This document shows positions 6,937 to 47,590 of a stretch of 55,864 bases of DNA, in pieces. Position numbers and translations under genes: made by a program. Below the pieces are notes generated by a model. The model had not been told where the DNA came from and did not search any database. It saw only the letters and a list, made by a program, of their open reading frames with translations. Position 1 is the stretch's first letter. Each line of letters starts with the position of its first letter. The DNA comes from Minisyncoccota bacterium (GTDB lineage: Bacteria; Patescibacteriota; Minisyncoccia; Phycocordibacterales; JAGLOS01), in the NCBI GenBank assembly GCA_023137615.1, contig JAGLOS010000002.1, forward strand, positions 1-55,864. The letters run 5' to 3'.

Positions 6937-7170
6937 ATGGATTTTATTGACAAAATATATGAAGAAATAGTTAATCCTTTCATATGGCTTATGTTGGCGG
7001 TTGCCGGAGTCTATTTTGTTTGGGGAGTATTTCTTTTCGTTAAAGATTATGATGATGAAGGGGAGAGATCAAATGGTAAACGACATCTTGTGTATGGGAT
7101 AATTGGTTTGGCTGTAATACTCTCTGTGAAAGGTATCATTGCTCTTATAACAGACACTGTTAGTTTATAA
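6937..7170 (+). CDS. Short pilin-core paralog P7 (no signal peptide)
   Basis: 77 aa consisting only of the two-TM core: VYFVWGVFLFVKDYDDEGERSNGKRHLVYGIIG. A terminator follows. Confidence 0.55.
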   Translation: MDFIDKIYEEIVNPFIWLMLAVAGVYFVWGVFLFVKDYDDEGERSNGKRHLVYGIIGLAVILSVKGIIALITDTVSL

Positions 7171-7191
7171 TCCTGACATTAAAACTCATAA

Positions 7192-7221
7192 AAACAAAAA
7201 CCCCGAGAGGGGTTTTTGTTT
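7192..7221 (+). terminator. Rho-independent terminator ending the pilin array
   Basis: Stem AAACAAAAACCCC / GGGGTTTTTGTTT with loop GAGA. Confidence 0.8.
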
Positions 7222-7674
7222 TAGGAAGGGGGAGGACTTGGCGCCGCTTCTAAATTTACACTTCGTGCTTCACACTTGTGTTCATTAAGAGTCCTCGACC
7301 CTGTCGCTCCGCTCCGAATTTTCGTTTCTCAGATTCGGACTTCGTGCGGATTTTTTTCAGGTCCTCTTCCCGGCAGGCACGGGACTTGGTCACGAGTCAC
7401 TAATCCTTTTGTTCGTCCTATTGGACTCCAAAACGCTAAGTGCTCTCCTCCTTACAGGAGCTGTCCACTCATTGGATCTTTTGTTTCGTTTCACTCACAA
7501 AAGCTCTCAATGAGTCTTGCGAAGCTCCAAGTATTCGCTTCTCACCCCGACTCGCAGCCCCTTCTCCTACACTTCGTTACGGAGTGGGGACCCGCTGCTC
7601 CGTCTTTCAAGTCCTCTCCCCGGCAACAAATAAACGGTGATAATGCTACACATTACCACCGTTTATTTGTATTG
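7222..7674 (+). repeat. tRNA-flank repeat module converging on tRNA-Leu(TAG), ending in an inverted copy of that tRNA's 3' end plus a hairpin
   Basis: It contains a T-arm-like fragment (7356-7375 TTCAGGTCCTCTTCCCGGCA) and a structured family copy (7448-7605). A perfect 20-nt copy of the tRNA 3' end sits at 7606-7625, and a 14-bp hairpin at 7626-7639/7657-7670. The ORFs listed here are translations of repeats. Confidence 0.75.
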
Positions 7675-7756
7675 TGCCGGGGAGAGGACTTGAACCTCCA
7701 CGGATTGCTCCACTTGCTCCTAAGGCAAGCGCGTCTACCAATTTCGCCACCCCGGC
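7675..7756 (-). tRNA. tRNA-Leu(TAG): tRNA-Leu (anticodon TAG), type II with long variable arm
   Basis: The reverse complement folds as GCCGGGG/CCCCGGC acceptor, anticodon arm CTTGC-CTTAGGA-GCAAG and T-arm GGAGG-TTCAAGT-CCTCT. No CCA is encoded. Confidence 0.9.
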
Positions 7757-7835
7757 ATTTATGGGTGTTCGTATATTCTATACTATTTGGATATTTTTTT
7801 CTAGTAATATTTCGGATGAAAGTTTAACCACCATT

Positions 7836-8009
7836 TTTTGTCATTTCGAAACAAAGCATTTAGCGTAGGGAGAAATCGCTTAAATATGGAAGTATGACAA
7901 CGTATAAGGGATTCACGACTCGGGTTGACACCCTCGCTGCACTGCGATTTGTATTCAATCGCTACGCTCTTGAACAAATCGGGAGCCTCCTAAAGTCGAA
8001 ATGACAAAA
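7836..8009. repeat. Hairpin family B element (TTTTGTCATYTCGA... terminal inverted repeats)
   Basis: TTTTGTCATTTCGAA (7836-7850) is inverted at 7995-8009 (GTCGAAATGACAAAA). Related ends occur at 8020-8034, 30037-30079, 42205-42285 and 52494-52584. Confidence 0.6.
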
Positions 8010-8037
8010 CGAACGTCACTTTGTCATCTCGACGTCA

Positions 8038-8400
8038 GGACTTGTCCCACGATTACTAAGTATCGCTGGACCTGCCTGTCGGTAGGCGCGGCTCGGCGAC
8101 AGGTACTCGCTTCGCTCGTTCAAATCTATTGTCGTCACAAGTCACTAAGCATATTTTTCGTTCTCGCAAGGCGGGCTCAAAGATAAACACAGGACTTGTC
8201 CCACGATTACTAAGTATATTTCTTCACAAAGCTCCTTCAAATTTCTTGTCGTCACAAGTCACTAAGTATATTTTTCGTTCTCGCAAGGCGGGCTCAAAGA
8301 TAAACACAGGACTTGTCCCACGATTACTAAGTATATTTCTTCGCAAAGCTCCTTCAAATTTCTTGTCGTCACAAGTCACTAAGTATATTTTTCGTGCTTC
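8038..8400 (-). repeat. Tandem repeat, 117-bp period (about 3 units, the first a 154-bp variant), downstream of tRNA-Lys
   Basis: Units start GGACTTGTCCCACGATTACTAAGT at 8038, 8192 and 8309. Units 2 and 3 are nearly identical. The 39-aa periodicity in ORF 8129-8578 is an artefact of this repeat. Confidence 0.85.
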
Positions 8401-8517
8401 GCACTCAAATCTACTAAGTGCTCGCGACCCCGGCTCACCTATTTTTCTTCCATTTCATTACAGAAAAATTATGGTTCCGCCTCGGACAAGCGTCGCAAGC
8501 AAAGCAGTTTGCTTGCT

Positions 8518-8552
8518 AAAACAAAAGCACCCTAAACGGGTGCTTTTGTTTT
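8518..8552 (-). terminator. Hairpin/terminator downstream of tRNA-Lys
   Basis: 15-bp stem AAAACAAAAGCACCC / GGGTGCTTTTGTTTT with loop TAAAC. A- and T-runs make it usable in both directions. Confidence 0.75.
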
Positions 8553-8559
8553 GCGCTTG

Positions 8560-8632
8560 TCCGCCCAGTAGGACTTGAACCTACGACCGTTCGCTTAAGA
8601 GGCGACTGCTCTACCAACTGAGCTATGGGCGG
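8560..8632 (-). tRNA. tRNA-Lys(CTT): tRNA-Lys (anticodon CTT)
   Basis: The reverse complement has D-arm GCTC-AGTTGGTA-GAGC, anticodon loop CTCTTAA and T-arm GTAGG-TTCAAGT-CCTAC. The acceptor is CCGCCCA/TGGGCGG, an unusual C1:G72 pair. Confidence 0.85.
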
Positions 8633-8763
8633 TAATAAAAAAATCAGTAATTTACTGACTCTCAATAAAAGCATTATACTAAAAAAAATAGAAAAATCCA
8701 GACCAATTTGAACTTTTATTCCAAATTATTTACAACAGGAGCTTTACAATTTGTCTCTTGTTC

Positions 8764-9028
8764 GAAAGCAAAGCAGTTTGCTTTCTCCTCGGGCACAAAT
8801 TACTAAGTATTATTCGGAGCAAAGCTCCTCAAATACTAAGTACCCCCTTCCTTACAGGAACTGTACACCTTTTGGATATTTTATACATTCGCTGCTCTCA
8901 TTTTAAAATATCTCAAAAGGTTTTACAAAGCTCCAAGTGTTCGCTTCTCACCCCGCCTCGCAGCCCCACCTTCCGCTTCGCTACAGGTAGGGACCCGCTG
9001 CTCCGGCTTTCGACCCCCGCTCCGTGCT
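8764..9028 (+). repeat. tRNA-flank structured repeat (family copy B) converging on tRNA-Leu(TAA)
   Basis: It holds a mini-hairpin GAAAGCAAAGCAGTTTGCTTTC (8764-8785) and hairpins at 8848-8860 and 8867-8921. The conserved block GCTCCAAGTGTTCGCTTCTCACC follows. It ends with TTCGACCCCCGC (9009-9020), an inverted copy of the tRNA T-arm. Confidence 0.75.
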
Positions 9029-9076
9029 ACAAAACAATAAATATGACATACTATCGCATGTCATATTTTCGTTTTG
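9029..9076. terminator. Hairpin between the repeat module and tRNA-Leu(TAA)
   Basis: Outer stem ACAAAAC / GTTTTGT, whose distal T at 9077 is the tRNA discriminator position, and inner stem AATATGACAT (9040-9049) / ATGTCATATT (9058-9067). Confidence 0.65.
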
Positions 9077-9158
9077 TGCCCGAGGCGGGGGTCGAACCCG
9101 CATCCCGTTAGGGACACGATTTTAAGTCGTGCGCGTATACCAATTCCGCCACTCGGGC
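9077..9158 (-). tRNA. tRNA-Leu(TAA): tRNA-Leu (anticodon TAA), type II
   Basis: The reverse complement is GCCCGAG...CTCGGGC+A, with anticodon arm CACGA-CTTAAAA-TCGTG and T-arm GCGGG-TTCGACC-CCCGC. Confidence 0.9.
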
Positions 9159-9162
9159 AAGT

Positions 9163-9399
9163 CTACAATGATTTTAAGAACTCTCTGCCAAAACCCCTTT
9201 TTAAATATTTTTCTCTTTTTCTCGCACTATTTCTTGTTTTACATTCTTCGGAATATATAAGCGTAAATGGAGAATAATATTTTGTCTTCCTCACATATCC
9301 TAAATTATGTTCATTAAAGCGTCTTTCAACACAATTTGTCAAACCAACATAGATGTAATTTTTTTCATTACTTCTTGTCGCGTAAACATAATGAATCAT
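9163..9399 (-). CDS. Small GIY-YIG nuclease-superfamily protein (UPF0213-like)
   Basis: 78 aa: YVYATRSNEKNYIYVGLTNCVERRFNEHN carries the GIY...YIG...R...E/N signature. It sits between two tRNA genes. Confidence 0.75.
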   Translation of the reverse strand: MIHYVYATRSNEKNYIYVGLTNCVERRFNEHNLGYVRKTKYYSPFTLIYSEECKTRNSARKREKYLKRGFGREFLKSL

Positions 9400-9435
9400 T
9401 TTTATTATATGTTAATTATTTGATTCTGCCCTTTG

Positions 9436-9507
9436 AGGCCTAGACCGGAATCGAACCGGTGCATGTCGGTTTTGCAGACCGAAGCGTTACCACTTCGCCA
9501 CTAGGCC
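9436..9507 (-). tRNA. tRNA-Cys(GCA): tRNA-Cys (anticodon GCA)
   Basis: The reverse complement is GGCCTAG...CTAGGCC+T, with anticodon loop CTGCAAA and T-arm ACCGG-TTCGATT-CCGGT. Flanks 9422-9435 and 9509-9522 are perfectly complementary. Confidence 0.9.
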
Positions 9508-9552
9508 TCAAAGGGCAGAATCGGAGTTGTTCAATTGTTAGTGTACATCATA

Positions 9553-9617
9553 CATGTCGGTTTTGCACCTGCCTGCCGGCAGGCAGGGACCGAAGCGTTA
9601 CCACTTCGCCGCAAGGC
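9553..9617 (-). pseudogene. Pseudo-tRNA-Cys (5' two-thirds only) with a 20-nt perfect palindrome in the anticodon loop
   Basis: It matches the real tRNA-Cys from the acceptor 5' strand through the anticodon stem 3' strand. CCTGCCTGCCGGCAGGCAGG (9568-9587) is inserted after position 32. There is no T-arm and no acceptor 3' strand. Confidence 0.75.
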
Positions 9618-9641
9618 TAAAAAGATACGATAAGTTATATT

Positions 9642-21765: not shown

Positions 21766-21960
21766 CATATGTAACAACGCCTTTTGGGGCGTTTTTGCAT
21801 ATGTGCCGGAGAGCAAGCAAACCGCTTTGCTTGCGTGGGAGAATCGAAAGGCGGAGCTATATCGCACGGAGCGTAGCGAGTACGACAGCGAGCCCGGGTA
21901 GGAAGCTCTTAGTGTTTTTAAGCTCTGCAAGAGCGTAAAAAATACTTAGAGACTTGACGC
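21766..21960 (-). repeat. tRNA-flank module: hairpin, split inverted copy of the tRNA-Leu(CAA) 3' end, and family body
   Basis: TGCCGGAG (21804-21811) is the reverse complement of 21758-21765. GGGAGAATCGAA (21837-21848) is the reverse complement of 21746-21757. The mini-hairpin GCAAGCAAACCGCTTTGCTTGC (21813-21834) separates them. The body resembles the reverse complement of 7427-7600. Confidence 0.75.
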
Positions 21961-23107: not shown

Positions 23108-23181
23108 GGGCCCGTAGCTCAGTTGGCTAGAGCACCTGTTTTGCACTCAGGAGGTCGCAGGTTCAATTCCTGTCGGGTCCA
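23108..23181 (+). tRNA. tRNA-Ala(TGC): tRNA-Ala (anticodon TGC)
   Basis: GGGCCCG acceptor with the G3:U70 pair, anticodon loop TTTGCAC (31:39 is a T:T mismatch) and T-arm GCAGG-TTCAATT-CCTGT. Confidence 0.85.
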
Positions 23182-23700
23182 CAAAAACCAAAATCCAAGC
23201 GATAGCTTGGGTTTTGTTGTTTTTGCGAGACCCGACAGGAATTGAACGGCGCAAGGCGGTATACAAGACGACCGTAGGGAGTGCTTGTCGCCGCGCCGCG
23301 TCCAGCAGTACTTATGAACTTGGAGTCCCGTAGGGCGAACAAGCGAGTTAGTAACTGCGGGACAATTCCTCTATGTCCACAAATTACCAAAACCGAAGCG
23401 TCTGCTTCGGTTTTGTTGTAATTTGTAGGACCCGACAGGAATTGAAAGACGGAGCAGGGGTTCCCTGCCTGTAGCGAAGCGGAAGGTAGGGCTGCGAGTC
23501 AGGGTCGTGAGCACTTAGCGTTTTTGGAGCATGAAAGGAGAACAAAAAGCTTAGTGACTCCTGACCAATTCCTCTAGGTCCACAACGACAAAAAAACTCG
23601 CGTATGCGAGTTTTTTTAATGTCGTTGTGGACCCGACAGGAGTTGCGACATTGTTTCCCTGTGAGCTTGTGAGTTAGGGTGCCTTTGTTGTGAACAGCCA
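23182..23700 (+). repeat. Three tandem modules of about 200 bp derived from the tRNA-Ala 3' end
   Basis: Inverted copies GACCCGACAGGAATTGAA(C) lie at 23229-23247 and 23428-23446, with a decayed one at 23628-23645. Decayed direct copies lie at 23361-23381 and 23561-23584. Hairpins lie at 23183-23225, 23381-23424 and 23583-23628. ORFs 23163-23390 and 23384-23701 are artefacts. Confidence 0.8.
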
Positions 23701-27336: not shown

Positions 27337-29142
27337 ATGGAAATTAGAAATATAGCAATTATAGCCCACGTGGATCATGGCAAGACCACTCTGACTGACG
27401 CGATCTTAAAACAGACAGGCGCGGGGAAAGAAGGTGTGTCAATGGATAGTAACGATCTGGAAAAAGAGCGGGGTATTACTATTTATTCCAAGAATACTTC
27501 AGTATTTTACAAGGACACAAAGATAAATATTTTGGATACTCCGGGTCATGCTGATTTTGGTTCTGAGGTGGAGCGAGTATTATGCTCCATTGATTCGGTG
27601 CTTTTGGTGGTAGATGCTGCGGAAGGTCCGATGCCGCAGACAAAGTTTGTGCTTAAGAAATCACTGGAACTTGGTTTGAAACCTATTTTAATATTGAACA
27701 AGATCGACAAGCCCGCGGCGGACGTTGATAAAGCGATCGAAGGCGTGTATGAACTTTTCTTGGACTTGGGGGCGACAGACGAGCAGTTGGATTTTACTAC
27801 TCTTTATGCTATCGGGCGTGATGGAGTTGCAAAACGTAACATGGAAGACAACGCCGTGGATTTGTGTCCGATCCTTGACACTGTTTTGGAGAAAGTTCTT
27901 CCGGCATCGGGGGACAATCTTAAAGAAAAGCCACTCAAAGCGCAGGTGTTCAACTTGGCGTATGATAATTTTCTTGGACGTATGGGGGTTTGTCGTATTT
28001 ATGAAGGGTCTATTAAGAACAAACAAGAGATTATTGTAAAAGACGCGGATGGAAAAGAATTTAAAGGCAAGATCGCAAAACTTTTTACTTTTGAAGGACT
28101 TGATCGTATTGAAACAAAAGAAGCGAGCGCGGGAGATATTGTTATGATATCGGGTATTCCGGAAATTTTTATTGGGCAGACTTTACTCGATAGCGCAGAA
28201 GGCGAAACACTTCCGGCTATTGATGTAGATGAGCCAACCATATCACTCTTTATGTTTGTGAACGATTCGCCGTTTGCGGGACGCATAGGTAAATTTGTGA
28301 CAGGGAGGCAGATTCGCGAGCGTCTCGAAAAAGAACTTGAGGTGAATGTGGGGCTCAAAGTGGACTTTGGCGATGGTGCGCGGATGAAAGTGTACGGCAG
28401 GGGCGAACTTCATTTGGCGGTTTTGTTGGAAAATATGCGACGAGAAGGATTTGAACTCGCGGTGTCGCAACCCGAAGTTATTTTCAAAGAGGTTAATAGT
28501 AAGAAGTGTGAACCGTTTGAAGAGGTGTCGGTGTTGGTACCGGAGAAATTTTCCGGTGCGGTAATAGAAAAGCTTGGAAAAAGGCGGGGTGTAATGACAA
28601 GCATGGGTACGGAGCATGGAGAGGTGCGTATAATGTTTGAAGTGCCGACACGCGGACTTTTGGGATACAGAAATGAATTTATTATTGATACGAAAGGGGA
28701 GGGAATTTTAACCGCGGTGTTCTCACACTTTGGTCCACACGCGGGAGAGATCGTGAAGACGGAGCTTGGTTCAATGGTATCAATGGCGGGCGGAAAAGCG
28801 CTTGGGTTTTCTCTTGCGAATTTACAGGAGCGTGGTGTGTTGTATATCGCGCCGAATGTCGAAGTATATGAAGGCATGGTCATTGGAAACACGAGTAAAG
28901 GCGAAGACATGGAGGTTAATCCTACCAAAGGTAAGCAATTGACCAACATGCGCGCTTCCGGGTCTGACGAAAATATTAAACTGGCACCGCCTTTGGAGTT
29001 ATCACTTGAGAAAGCGCTTGGCTTTATGCGAGAAGACGAATACTTGGAGGTAACTCCTGAGGATATACGATTGCGCAAACAATTCTTGAGCGAAAACGAG
29101 CGCAGTAAGAACAAGCGCACGACCGTGAAAGCGGGGGAATAA
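27337..29142 (+). CDS. typA: Translational GTPase TypA/BipA
   Basis: 601 aa: IRNIAIIAHVDHGKTTL, DTPGHADF, NKID, then EF-G-like domains and the BipA-specific C-terminus. Confidence 0.95.
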   Translation: MEIRNIAIIAHVDHGKTTLTDAILKQTGAGKEGVSMDSNDLEKERGITIYSKNTSVFYKDTKINILDTPGHADFGSEVERVLCSIDSVLLVVDAAEGPMPQTKFVLKKSLELGLKPILILNKIDKPAADVDKAIEGVYELFLDLGATDEQLDFTTLYAIGRDGVAKRNMEDNAVDLCPILDTVLEKVLPASGDNLKEKPLKAQVFNLAYDNFLGRMGVCRIYEGSIKNKQEIIVKDADGKEFKGKIAKLFTFEGLDRIETKEASAGDIVMISGIPEIFIGQTLLDSAEGETLPAIDVDEPTISLFMFVNDSPFAGRIGKFVTGRQIRERLEKELEVNVGLKVDFGDGARMKVYGRGELHLAVLLENMRREGFELAVSQPEVIFKEVNSKKCEPFEEVSVLVPEKFSGAVIEKLGKRRGVMTSMGTEHGEVRIMFEVPTRGLLGYRNEFIIDTKGEGILTAVFSHFGPHAGEIVKTELGSMVSMAGGKALGFSLANLQERGVLYIAPNVEVYEGMVIGNTSKGEDMEVNPTKGKQLTNMRASGSDENIKLAPPLELSLEKALGFMREDEYLEVTPEDIRLRKQFLSENERSKNKRTTVKAGE

Positions 29143-38059: not shown

Positions 38060-38256
38060 GTCATTGCGAGTCGCAAGTCCGCAGTGTCCGCAGACTAAGC
38101 AATCCAACACCCAACGTCATTGCGAGAAGTGATACGGAGCGAAGCGGAGTAGCATGACGAAGCAATCCAGAGTATGTTGGTATAACTCTGGATTGCTTCG
38201 CCTGCGGCTCGCAATGACGATAGTGATCTTAACCAAACATAATCATCGTTTCCCTA
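38060..38256. repeat. Two nested/adjacent hairpin family A elements plus the conserved tail
   Basis: GTCATTGCGAG occurs at 38060 and 38118. The right arm is ACTCTGGATTGCTTCGCCTGCGGCTCGCAATGACG (38185-38219). The tail TTAACCAAACATAATCATCGTTTCCCTA lies at 38229-38256. Confidence 0.8.
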
Positions 38257-42204: not shown

Positions 42205-42325
42205 CTCTGTCGTTTTGAAACAAAGTGTTTAACCACCTGTTTTATCATTTCGGACTAAACGAACGTGGAGTGACGGAAACACCGTTTTTTCTAAAATCTC
42301 AAACCTATAAGCTAAAACCTAACTC
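42205..42325 (+). repeat. Hairpin family B fragment followed by a 7-nt periodic array
   Basis: GTCGTTTTGAAACAAAGTG... and TTTTATCATTTCGG... resemble 7836-7860. The junction CACCGTTTTTTCTAAAAT leads into the heptads at 42291-42325. Confidence 0.6.
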
Positions 42326-43384: not shown

Positions 43385-43407
43385 AAAAAATTTGTAAAAA
43401 TTTTTTT

Positions 43408-43463
43408 CTAAAACCTAAAACCTAGAACTTAACACCTATCAGCTAACACCTAAAAGCCAGAAA
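43408..43463 (+). repeat. Eight degenerate heptads abutting the ychF start codon
   Basis: CTAAAAC CTAAAAC CTAGAAC TTAACAC CTATCAG CTAACAC CTAAAAG CCAGAAA, then ATG. Confidence 0.75.
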
Positions 43464-46019: not shown

Positions 46020-46262
46020 GCTCCGGACTCAATTTTGAGTTCGCTTCGCTTTCGCTTTCCAGCGGCAAGCCGACGGGGTATTTACCTGATATTATTTCCT
46101 TACAGGAACTGTCCACTTATTGGACTTTTTATTTCGTTTCACTCACAAAAATTCTCAATAAGTCTTGCGAAAGCTCCAAGTGTTCGCTTTCTCACCTCGG
46201 CTCGGGAATGCAAAAGTTACGCTTCGCTCCACTTTTGCATTCCGCTCGCTCTACGTCGCTAA
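46020..46262 (+). repeat. Orphan copy (C) of the tRNA-flank structured repeat family, with no tRNA adjacent
   Basis: 46096-46196 aligns with 7448-7545 and 8848-8953: TTCCTTACAGGAACTGTCCACTTATTGG...CAATAAGTCTTGCGAAAGCTCCAAGTGTTCGCTTTCTCACC. ORF 46011-46262 is an artefact. Confidence 0.75.
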
Positions 46263-46433
46263 TAAAAACGAGTGTGTCGTTTGCTGCGCTCCATATAACA
46301 TTAAATGTTATAAGAAGTCAATATTTTAGTGTTACAAATTCGTTTAAGTCGGACTTTTTGCTGCGTCAAAAGGAAATTGTAAGAGCCATTATCTCGGAAT
46401 TTTTTGAAGTAAATGAAATATTTTACAAAATAG

Positions 46434-46488: not shown

Positions 46489-47517
46489 ATGGCTATTATT
46501 ACATTCAAACCAAAACAAGTTACAAAACGATTGTCAAATGTTCTTGGGGAACGTCCTCGGTTTGTCATTATGAATCGTTTTGGCTTGGGGGATAATGCTT
46601 CTCGTATGACTCTCGAGTCTATTGGTGGTACCTACGGCATTACAAGAGAGCGTGTCCGGCAGATCGAGAACTTTGGTCTGAATGCTATTCGCAAGTCAGA
46701 TATGTTCAATAAAGAACAAGCGGTTTTTGAGGAGTTGGTAAAGATCGTGACTGAGCTGGGAGGGATCGTATCCGAGGAAGACCTTTTGGGACATATTTCA
46801 AAAGATCCAAAAACACAGAATCACGTCCACTTCCTACTTGTACTTGGCGATGAATTTAAGAAAGAAAAGGAAAATAAAGAGTTTAAACACAGATGGAGTG
46901 TCGATAAAGATATTGCGGATATTGTTCACATATCACTGCAAGAGATGTCAAAAAAACTTACAAAGAACGATATTGTGTCAGAGGGTGAAATGATCGCAAA
47001 TTTTGTTAATCAATTGAAAGACATATCAGAACAATATAAAAATGAGGAGATCATCAAACGATGGCTCGGGCTTTCGAAGGTCATTGGACGAAACCCTCTT
47101 GGAGAATGGGGGATCGCGGAATCTTCAAACATAAATGCTCGGGGTGTTCGAGATTATGCTTTTTTGGTTATTCGACGCCATGGTTCTCCGATGCACTTTA
47201 CTGAAGTTGCCGAGGCGATCACAGACTTGTTCGGCAAGAACGCACATACCGCAACATGTCACAATGAGTTGATCAAAGATAAACGTTTTGTGTTGGTGGG
47301 TCGTGGATTGTATGCTCTGAAAGAGTGGGGGTATCAGACCGGTGTAGTAAAAGATGTTATTAAAAAAGTCCTTCAGCAACACCAACCGCTATCAAAAGAA
47401 AAGATCGTTGAGCAAGTGCTTAAGGAGAGATATGTCAAAGAAAATACCATTGCGGTAAATCTACAAGACACAAACATTTTTAAAAAAGACAAACAGGGAA
47501 AGTACTCACTTGTATAA
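46489..47517 (+). CDS. Sigma-70 region-4-like HTH protein with a C-terminal HARE-HTH-like domain
   Basis: 342 aa. TLESIGGTYGITRERVRQIENFGLNAIRK is a sigma region 4.2 motif. The C-terminus (MHFTEVAEAITDLF...FVLVGRGLYALKEWGY) resembles the RNAP delta/HARE-HTH fold. Confidence 0.7.
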   Translation: MAIITFKPKQVTKRLSNVLGERPRFVIMNRFGLGDNASRMTLESIGGTYGITRERVRQIENFGLNAIRKSDMFNKEQAVFEELVKIVTELGGIVSEEDLLGHISKDPKTQNHVHFLLVLGDEFKKEKENKEFKHRWSVDKDIADIVHISLQEMSKKLTKNDIVSEGEMIANFVNQLKDISEQYKNEEIIKRWLGLSKVIGRNPLGEWGIAESSNINARGVRDYAFLVIRRHGSPMHFTEVAEAITDLFGKNAHTATCHNELIKDKRFVLVGRGLYALKEWGYQTGVVKDVIKKVLQQHQPLSKEKIVEQVLKERYVKENTIAVNLQDTNIFKKDKQGKYSLV

Positions 47518-47525
47518 GCAGCAAA

Positions 47526-47565
47526 TTAGGTTTTAGCTTATGGGTTTGAGGTTTTAGGTTTTAGG
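47526..47565 (-). repeat. 7-nt periodic array (reverse complement orientation)
   Basis: The reverse complement reads CCTAAAA CCTAAAA CCTCAAA CCCATAA GCTAAAA CCTAA. Confidence 0.7.
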
Positions 47566-47590
47566 AAAAACGCGCACAAGCGCGTTTTCC
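47564..47590 (+). terminator. Terminator-like hairpin
   Basis: GGAAAAACGCGC-ACAA-GCGCGTTTTCC. Confidence 0.65.

Follow-up and report, generated by a model that had tools for sequence, protein, structure and literature searches.

Three copies of a hairpin-forming repeat in the 55,864-nt stretch of DNA analysed here (the window), which derives from a Patescibacteria (CPR) metagenome-assembled genome, are members of a large family of folded elements of 100-200 nt that is found across Patescibacteria genomes. The fold is under selection, the hairpins being kept through hundreds of compensatory changes, and between 25% and 45% of the copies, depending on the set examined, lie within 400-500 nt of a tRNA gene, almost always in the same orientation, and are bordered by copied pieces of that tRNA. 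The family is absent from Rfam 15 and no description of it was found in the papers searched. It is best interpreted as a modular, non-autonomous and structure-constrained interspersed element that colonises tRNA loci and is probably expressed as RNA with them, though mechanism and function are only inferred and this reading as a whole is held at a probability of about 0.5. Given the small, streamlined genomes of Patescibacteria, a family of non-coding elements with this many copies, and with covariation about as clear as comparative analysis can give, is unexpected.

The hairpin arms and repeats described in the sequence-only reading were all confirmed at their positions, and copies A, B and C are the only full copies in the window (Table 1). 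P1 reads CTCCTTACAGGAG in A and TTCCTTACAGGAA in both B and C, giving 3 matches to the pattern against 0.17 expected by chance. The base of P2 is formed by ACTCATTG (7467-7474) and CAATGAGT (7508-7515) in A, by ACCTTTTG (8867-8874) and CAAAAGGT (8914-8921) in B and by ACTTATTG and CAATAAGT in C, with the additional pairing of GATATTTTA and TAAAATATC present in B. The 23-nt conserved block GCTCCAAGTRTTCGCTTCTCACC matches exactly in A and B, with 0 matches expected, while C carries a 1-nt insertion. A and C are 89% identical over 75 nt and A and B are 84% identical over 63 nt. The reverse-complement relatives noted after tRNA-Ala and tRNA-Leu(CAA) are also real (8950-9033 against 23422-23505, 84 nt, 81% complementary), but share only the M3 module and the tRNA-derived part and not P1-P3. 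A covariance model built from 47 relatives finds the three full copies at 103, 98 and 92 bits, with the next hit scoring 11.5 bits. The region is the same in two other records that carry this stretch, L001 and L002 (L numbers denote the records and loci examined), and the IF-2 encoded in the window is found on an ENA scaffold and on a contig of GCA_030634645.1. The window also contains eight tRNA genes, type IV secretion pilin-like ORFs and genes for ClpB, MiaA and Ddl, and its IF-2 is short.

Table 1. Positions of the three copies, their hairpins and their neighbouring features in the window.
Position	Strand	Feature	Details
7448-7460	-	Copy A, hairpin P1	CUCC-UGUAA-GGAG; an extra U:A pair leaves a GUA triloop
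7461-7466	-	Copy A, conserved linker between P2 and P1	GGACAG here; family consensus (U)GUACAG
7467-7515	-	Copy A, long hairpin P2	Base CUCAUUG/CAAUGAG, covarying with CCUUUUG/CAAAAGG and other forms; apex variable
7518-7544	-	Copy A, hairpin P3	Base UGAG/CGCA with a conserved A·G opposition; stem AAGC/GCUU; 11-nt loop GAAUACUUGGA
7549-7604	-	Copy A, module M3	Closing helix GAC/GUC, internal loop GGAG/CGA, then CAGC/GCUG and a variable hairpin
7606-7625	-	Inverted copy of the last 20 nt (T-loop to discriminator) of the adjacent tRNA-Leu(TAG)	20-nt exact match
7626-7673	.	A/T-flanked hairpin between tRNA-Leu(TAG) and the inverted copy	Looks like a bidirectional intrinsic terminator; identified by eye and not listed by the terminator scan
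7674-7756	-	tRNA-Leu(TAG)	Upstream of copy A on the same strand
7190-7447	-	Distal part of the array after copy A	Degenerate modules, a truncated direct copy (CAAGTCC) and a second inverted copy of the tRNA 3' end, then a diverged direct copy followed by a terminator (7191-7222)
8848-8950	-	Copy B core	P1 8848-8860, P2 8867-8921, P3 8924-8950
8955-9007	-	Copy B, module M3	Closing helix GCC/GGC
9009-9029	-	Imperfect inverted copy of the tRNA-Leu(TAA) 3' end	Followed by a terminator (9039-9068, listed by the terminator scan) and the tRNA gene (9076-9158, minus strand)
46096-46194	-	Copy C core	P1 46096-46108, P2 46115-46163, P3 46166-46194; no tRNA gene nearby
46197-46269	-	Copy C, M3-like hairpin and conserved tail	Tail ...GCTCGCTCTACGTCGCTAATAAAAAC
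23422-23507	+	Relative containing M3 only, after tRNA-Ala	Inverted tRNA-Ala 3' end plus M3; one of three successive units at 23183-23640
21836-21905	+	Weaker relative containing M3 only, after tRNA-Leu(CAA)	Inverted tRNA 3' copy interrupted by a small palindrome at 21811-21835

The constant core of the element is three consecutive hairpins joined by conserved linkers, which on the purine-rich strand reads GGGUGAG-[P3]-CGCAAGA-[P2]-UGUACAG-[P1, loop UGUAA], and a fourth hairpin, M3, often precedes it. The conserved block had been described as looking single-stranded, but this is not the case, as AAGC/GCTT and the flanking TGCG/CTCA close an 11-nt loop and the block is the top of P3. To investigate the extent of the family, one genome per species was scanned for GCTCCAAGTNTTCGCTT, for which roughly 280 chance matches are estimated in 596 Gb, and the hits outside the CPR mostly lack any flanking structure. 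Hairpins with the same loop do, however, occur in Treponema and Spirochaetia MAGs (L011, L013, L047, L091), with the same flanks derived from the tRNA 3' end in L047, and in one 'Phenylobacterium' MAG on short contigs, which may be mis-binned. Alignment of 47 distinct copies gave P1 as NNCC-UGUAA-GGNN and P2 as a long hairpin with a covarying base and a variable apex. The covariance model from this alignment gave 83 hits in 100 loci, including copies in which P3 has quite different stems and a shorter ...UGGGA loop. Three matches to the motif in IMG/VR lack any flanking structure and are chance; no copy occurs there and a phage origin is not supported.

Both RNAalifold and explicit pair counts show strong covariation. 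In the 47 relatives ascertained through the P3 loop 91.9% of cells pair, against 35-52% when the partners are slid, and there are 106 double-change cells against 26.7±5.0 in shuffles, a value reached by 0 of 500. To remove the bias of searching with the P3 loop, metagenomes were scanned with the end of P2, the linker and P1 (AGGTGTACAGNNNCTGTAAG). On the 126 model hits obtained in this way all 20 pairs covary, including seven in P3, 92.8% of cells pair against 49% or less when slid, and 451 double-change cells compare with 116.9±10.6, again reached by 0 of 500 shuffles. All five pairs of P1 covary in the two sets. P3 keeps its base and a ...GGA loop motif while its stem is replaced many times; it is present in 77 of 117 copies of the second set, where the canonical loop accounts for only about a fifth of cases. 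In 29 of 117 an inverted T-loop sequence (TCGAA/TTGAA) lies directly before P2 instead. M3 also covaries, its three-pair closing helix appearing as GAC/GUC, GCC/GGC or GGC/GCC around a constant GGAG/CGA internal loop, and its apical hairpin is replaced outright between copy C and L098, a locus of another MAG. As judged by these shuffle and slid-partner controls, the inference of the sequence-only reading that selection acts on structure and not on the spurious ORFs spanning these regions is supported.

The strand that folds is most likely the purine-rich one, opposite to that on which the repeat was first described. For A, B and C this is the minus strand, the sense of the neighbouring tRNA genes, and the assignment is made with roughly 75% confidence. 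Outside the internal-loop columns G·U outnumbers A·C by 15:6 and 17:4 in the two sets (32:10 together). On the purine-rich strand the non-Watson-Crick positions are tandem G·A/A·G in P2, seen in about 17 of 50 and 32-34 of 90 copies, A·G in P3 and GGAG/CGA in M3, whereas on the other strand they would be C·U-type clashes. The P3 of B has two A·C oppositions on the plus strand that are G·U pairs on the minus strand, and pairs fully only on the latter. Although raw folding energies favoured the reverse strand in 47 of 47 copies, this difference vanished when dinucleotide-shuffle z-scores were compared (-2.8 against -3.0), and it was discarded as an artefact of composition.

The description of the repeats as a family flanking tRNA genes is only partly right. 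In the set ascertained through P3, 19 of 75 copies have a tRNA gene within 500 nt, 18 of them co-oriented, and in the unbiased set 53 of 117 have one within 400 nt, with 47 co-oriented and 6 opposed, at a tRNA density of 105 per 728 kb. The remainder, more than half, sit like copy C in unrelated intergenic DNA and show no orientation bias toward protein genes (32:31 and 31:29), which does not favour a cis-regulatory leader or a 3'-UTR stabiliser. In tRNA sense the recurring architecture is the tRNA, often a terminator, an inverted copy of the tRNA's own T-loop-to-3'-end segment, then (M3)-P3-P2-P1, and then a direct copy of the same segment and a terminator. Among 52 tRNA-to-core pairs a direct copy of at least 10 nt, exact, of the tRNA's own 3' 24-mer follows P1 in 25, against 7 of 387 mismatched controls, and an inverted copy precedes the core in 22, against 11 of 387. 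Other junctions fall at the anticodon loop (L075, a 37-nt direct repeat; L183, in which the tRNA-Pro 5' half is fused to GUGAG; L165 and L161) and at the D-arm (L201). In the window, tRNA-Tyr, tRNA-Ala and both flanked tRNA-Leu genes carry long palindromes running from the tRNA 3' end through the terminator to an inverted copy. In the array after tRNA-Ala the inverted copies match the present tRNA while the direct copies share 3-4 differences. The helix that the two could form is therefore not compensated, and these borders are treated as scars of a copying process rather than as a selected minihelix. The inverted copies match the genomic trailer and not CCA, arguing against a primer-binding site.

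The copies behave as repeats. There are 3 in 56 kb in the window and 2-5 per locus elsewhere, up to 5 within 500 nt and in both orientations, and some are truncated or mosaic. Copy A is 96% identical over 98 nt to a copy in a Kaiserbacteria MAG, and copy C with its M3 and tail is 93% identical to the unit at the non-syntenic locus L098, where the flanking proteins have no homologue, while tRNA genes shared with another MAG are only 84-86% identical. Such high identity could, however, also reflect strong purifying selection on a housekeeping RNA rather than spread. All-against-all clustering of the neighbouring ORFs around 74 and 237 loci found only housekeeping genes, with no transposase, integrase or reverse transcriptase; a small GIY-YIG ORF recurs in 3 of 74 loci, which is not convincing. 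The repeats also generate spurious ORFs and tRNA pseudo-fragments and break MAG assemblies, the contig of L002 ending inside the array.

It would seem likely from these observations that the element is made as RNA together with, or like, the tRNAs, as a trailer or spacer transcript, although without expression data RNA cannot be separated from single-stranded DNA. Hairpins that look like intrinsic terminators lie between each tRNA and the element in the window, so that co-transcription would need read-through, and the promoter and terminator scans were not informative, revealing no consistent promoter or terminator. The invariant loops and linkers may be a recognition surface for a factor supplied in trans. 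Multiplication may occur by a copy or integration process that breaks tRNA genes at their loops, mostly the T-loop and sometimes the anticodon or D loop, and duplicates the flanking tRNA segment in direct and inverted form, producing the arrays at 7190-7673, 8640-9075 and 23183-23640. This would be a possible new way in which repeats colonise and rearrange tRNA loci, though the inverted copies are not explained by ordinary site-specific integration, no mobilising enzyme is identified and insertion polymorphism between close relatives could not be used as a test.

A possible though less favoured alternative is that the element is a bona fide cellular non-coding RNA domain, such as a protective or processing module, a protein sponge or a tRNA-related cofactor in tRNA operons, whose copies are maintained because each one functions, the tRNA fragments at its borders being by-products of local rearrangement. 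Consistent with this, loops and linkers are invariant while stems covary freely, sequence conservation between genomes equals or exceeds that of tRNA genes, and co-orientation with tRNA genes is strong. Interestingly, every module carries a conserved GGA (M3 CGGAGC, the P3 loop ...UGGA/GGGA and P1 UAAGGA), which may resemble protein-binding hairpins such as CsrA sites. On the other hand, copy number and location vary, copies occur in both orientations within clusters, many are truncated or mosaic, nearly identical units occur at non-syntenic loci and there is no conserved gene neighbourhood.

It is less likely that the element acts purely at the DNA level, with single-stranded DNA hairpins recognised by a transposase or recombinase encoded elsewhere in the genome, in the manner of REP/RAYT, IS200/IS605 ends or integron attC sites, and with any transcription incidental. 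Wobble pairs are rare overall (about 1-2% of cells), so the arms are close to perfectly complementary, clusters contain alternating orientations like BIMEs, the long palindromes run from tRNA 3' ends through terminators, and the junctions fall in tRNA gene loops, where extruded DNA hairpins would be cut. Tandem G·A pairs are probably stable in DNA also. However, the asymmetry of G·U (G·T) against A·C and the conserved purine-purine oppositions indicate that only one strand is constrained, no Y1/HUH transposase or tyrosine recombinase was seen near any of the 237 loci, and orientation is tied to tRNA genes and not to anything replication-related that could be seen.

A role in processing tRNA precursors, either as a new self-cleaving ribozyme or as a tRNA-like RNA whose closing helix mimics the acceptor/T-arm minihelix and is cut by RNase P and RNase Z, is doubtful. 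Where an inverted T-loop lies directly before P2, a tRNA-derived helix can close P2 and P1 into a three-way junction, as read in single cases (L130, L166, L172), with conserved linkers (AGA, UGUACAG) and variable stems. In L046 and L166 the inverted and direct copies can form a helix of 18-21 bp whose ends coincide with acceptor positions 1 and 73. In several loci (L035, L061, L062, L081) the element lies directly 3' of the tRNA gene without a terminator, a position reminiscent of that which theta/HDV-like ribozymes appear to have 3' of phage tRNAs. However, the closing helix is absent or uncompensated in many copies, that of A having only 7 bp and B ending with a second inverted copy, and more than half of the copies have no tRNA nearby. 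No Rfam ribozyme model scores, the linker CUGUACA (on the strand first described) shares only 4 of 7 positions with CUGAUGA by inspection, and by eye neither a hammerhead-like core nor a tRNA-like cloverleaf or anticodon-like loop in module M0 fits. It is conceivable, but unlikely, that the core is a new class of RNA living in tRNA transcription units, as a self-cleaving or processing module or a tRNA-minihelix-capped RNA, that also propagates by copying itself into the loops of tRNA genes. In that case Patescibacteria would carry a mobile, catalytic or processing RNA that parasitises or services tRNA genes with no protein of its own. Finally, although with only three copies, A and C being 89% identical, each paired change could be a single event, the suggestion that these are young duplicates or co-converted palindromes under no selection is refuted by more than 170 further copies in unrelated genomes, which keep every helix through many different pair types while loops and linkers stay constant.

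Among Rfam families only tRNAs, plus RNase P in L084, pass the gathering threshold. At E up to 10 on 7150-9200 and up to 1 on four other loci nothing overlaps the element apart from one weak, chance-level match at E 7.4 (WT1-AS_5, a human lncRNA region, 7484-7561) and miRNA-type hits on the terminator palindrome. P1-P3 are not followed by the U tracts that would be expected of intrinsic terminators, the terminator-like hairpins after the tRNAs being separate features. The element works most like the mosaic, hairpin-forming interspersed repeats. With the REP, BIME and REPIN elements of proteobacteria it shares an extragenic, multi-copy and non-autonomous character, hairpin formation, mosaic clusters with units in both orientations and a position often just after terminators. 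However, its core is much larger (90-200 nt, three to four hairpins), it is conserved across many named Patescibacteria candidate groups rather than one genus, no GTAG-type 5' tetranucleotide is seen at the hairpin feet, its borders are copies of the neighbouring tRNA and no RAYT gene was seen within 2 kb of the 237 loci, whole genomes not being available. The BOX elements of Streptococcus pneumoniae and the Rickettsia palindromic elements (RPE) are similarly modular (boxA-B-C-like) or palindromic interspersed repeats of 100-300 nt with stable predicted folds, no coding capacity and an unknown mobilising enzyme, but are confined to a genus and have no tRNA co-orientation or tRNA-derived flanks, and to our knowledge covariation with invariant loops has not been shown for them. 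In contrast to MITEs there is no constant terminal repeat, as the inverted and direct border sequences differ from copy to copy and match the neighbouring tRNA.

As in elements integrated in tRNA genes by tyrosine integrases, and their deleted non-autonomous derivatives (CIMEs), direct repeats running from the T-loop or the anticodon loop to the tRNA 3' end flank the insert (37 nt in L075, 24 nt in L062, 18 nt in L046; also L047), successive insertions form tandem arrays and orientation relative to the tRNA is fixed. Here, though, the insert is only 100-300 nt, many different tRNA species are used, inverted copies are about as common as direct ones and the conserved part is a folded single strand rather than duplex arm sites. 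No tyrosine or serine integrase lies in or beside any copy examined, although a partner acting in trans cannot be excluded. Functional RNAs carried in tRNA precursors, such as the 3'ETS-leuZ sponge of E. coli and, it appears, theta/HDV-like ribozymes 3' of phage tRNAs, are likewise structured RNAs located in the trailer or spacer of tRNA transcription units on the tRNA strand, but show no sequence or model similarity to this element, which is multi-copy and also found far from tRNAs. Integron attC sites are recombination sites defined by a folded single strand, in which stems covary while a few unpaired bases are conserved and only one strand is functional. The present element has three separate hairpins rather than one, and no cassette array, IntI gene or R''/R' core sequences, yet its one-strand, fold-defined constraint recalls either these sites or a genuine RNA.

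Four of the tRNA genes, those for Tyr, Ala, Leu-TAG and Leu-TAA, are each followed by a palindrome of about 85-90 nt that runs from the tRNA 3' end, starting at the T-loop, through an intrinsic-terminator-like hairpin to an inverted copy of the same tRNA segment. tRNA-Tyr has this palindrome without any further element. Downstream of tRNA-Lys there are about two and a half tandem copies of a 117-nt unit (96% identical), which are built from the same kind of short modules (…ACTTAGTRA…, GTGAC) as the arrays around copies A and B of the element. A partial duplicate of the 5' part of tRNA-Cys lies upstream of the real gene, with a 20-nt perfect palindrome (CCTGCCTGCCGGCAGGCAGG) inserted at the anticodon loop, while the intact tRNA-Cys is bracketed by a 14-nt inverted repeat, GATTCTGCCCTTTG / CAAAGGGCAGAATC. 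A second small conserved palindrome, (A)GCAAGCAAACYGCTTTGCTTGC, recurs in tRNA flanks, in one case inserted inside the inverted tRNA-Leu(CAA) copy, and is also seen in other Patescibacteria loci (L027, L035, L050 and L167). The deposited contig of the metagenome-assembled genome (MAG) GCA_030634645.1 stops inside the repeat array downstream of tRNA-Leu(TAA), and these elements break short-read assemblies.

Wedged between tRNA-Cys and tRNA-Leu(TAA) is an ORF for a 78-aa stand-alone GIY-YIG nuclease (Pfam E 8.5e-17). Although similar small ORFs occur near the element in 3 of 74 other loci, these are too few to call an association. The 13-mer CGAATACTTGGAG, identical to the loop of hairpin P3 on its folded strand, occurs within the coding sequence of typA/bipA (…EDEYLEVTP), where it is preceded by GAGAAG, as in P3. 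An exact 13-mer is expected about 0.002 times in the window.

Two further repeats were observed. A repeated A/C-rich motif (TTTTTCTAAAAYCT.AAACCTA..GCTAAAACCTAAC) lies in four intergenic regions just upstream of genes, in one of them inverted, and may be a shared regulatory or promoter element. In addition, a 67-nt inverted repeat, 88% complementary, has its arms 38 kb apart.

Coordinates of the additional features, in the window unless another locus is named
Feature	Position	Strand
Palindromes following tRNA-Tyr, tRNA-Ala, tRNA-Leu-TAG and tRNA-Leu-TAA	18065-18152, 23161-23247, 7606-7694, 9009-9096	
Tandem 117-nt units downstream of tRNA-Lys	8107-8400	
Partial tRNA-Cys duplicate, and intact tRNA-Cys (9435-9507) with its bracketing inverted repeat	9553-9620 (-) and 9421-9521	
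GIY-YIG nuclease ORF	9163-9399	-
13-mer identical to the P3 loop, inside typA/bipA (27337-29142)	29031-29049	+
Second small conserved palindrome	8493-8517, 8762-8786, 21811-21835	
A/C-rich motif	138-175, 42286-42323, 43403-43440; inverted at 47510-47570	
67-nt inverted repeat	8-74 and 38115-38181	
Contig break inside the repeat array	L002 (GCA_030634645.1 contig), end of contig	

Hairpins with the same AAGCGAAnACTTGGAGCTT apex occur outside Patescibacteria, in loci from Treponema/Spirochaetia MAGs (L011, L013, L047 and L091) and on short contigs, which may be mis-binned, of a 'Phenylobacterium' MAG (L067 and L086). In L047 the hairpin sits after tRNA-Pro, between an inverted and a direct copy of the tRNA 3' end, with an ~80-nt direct duplication that includes the terminator.
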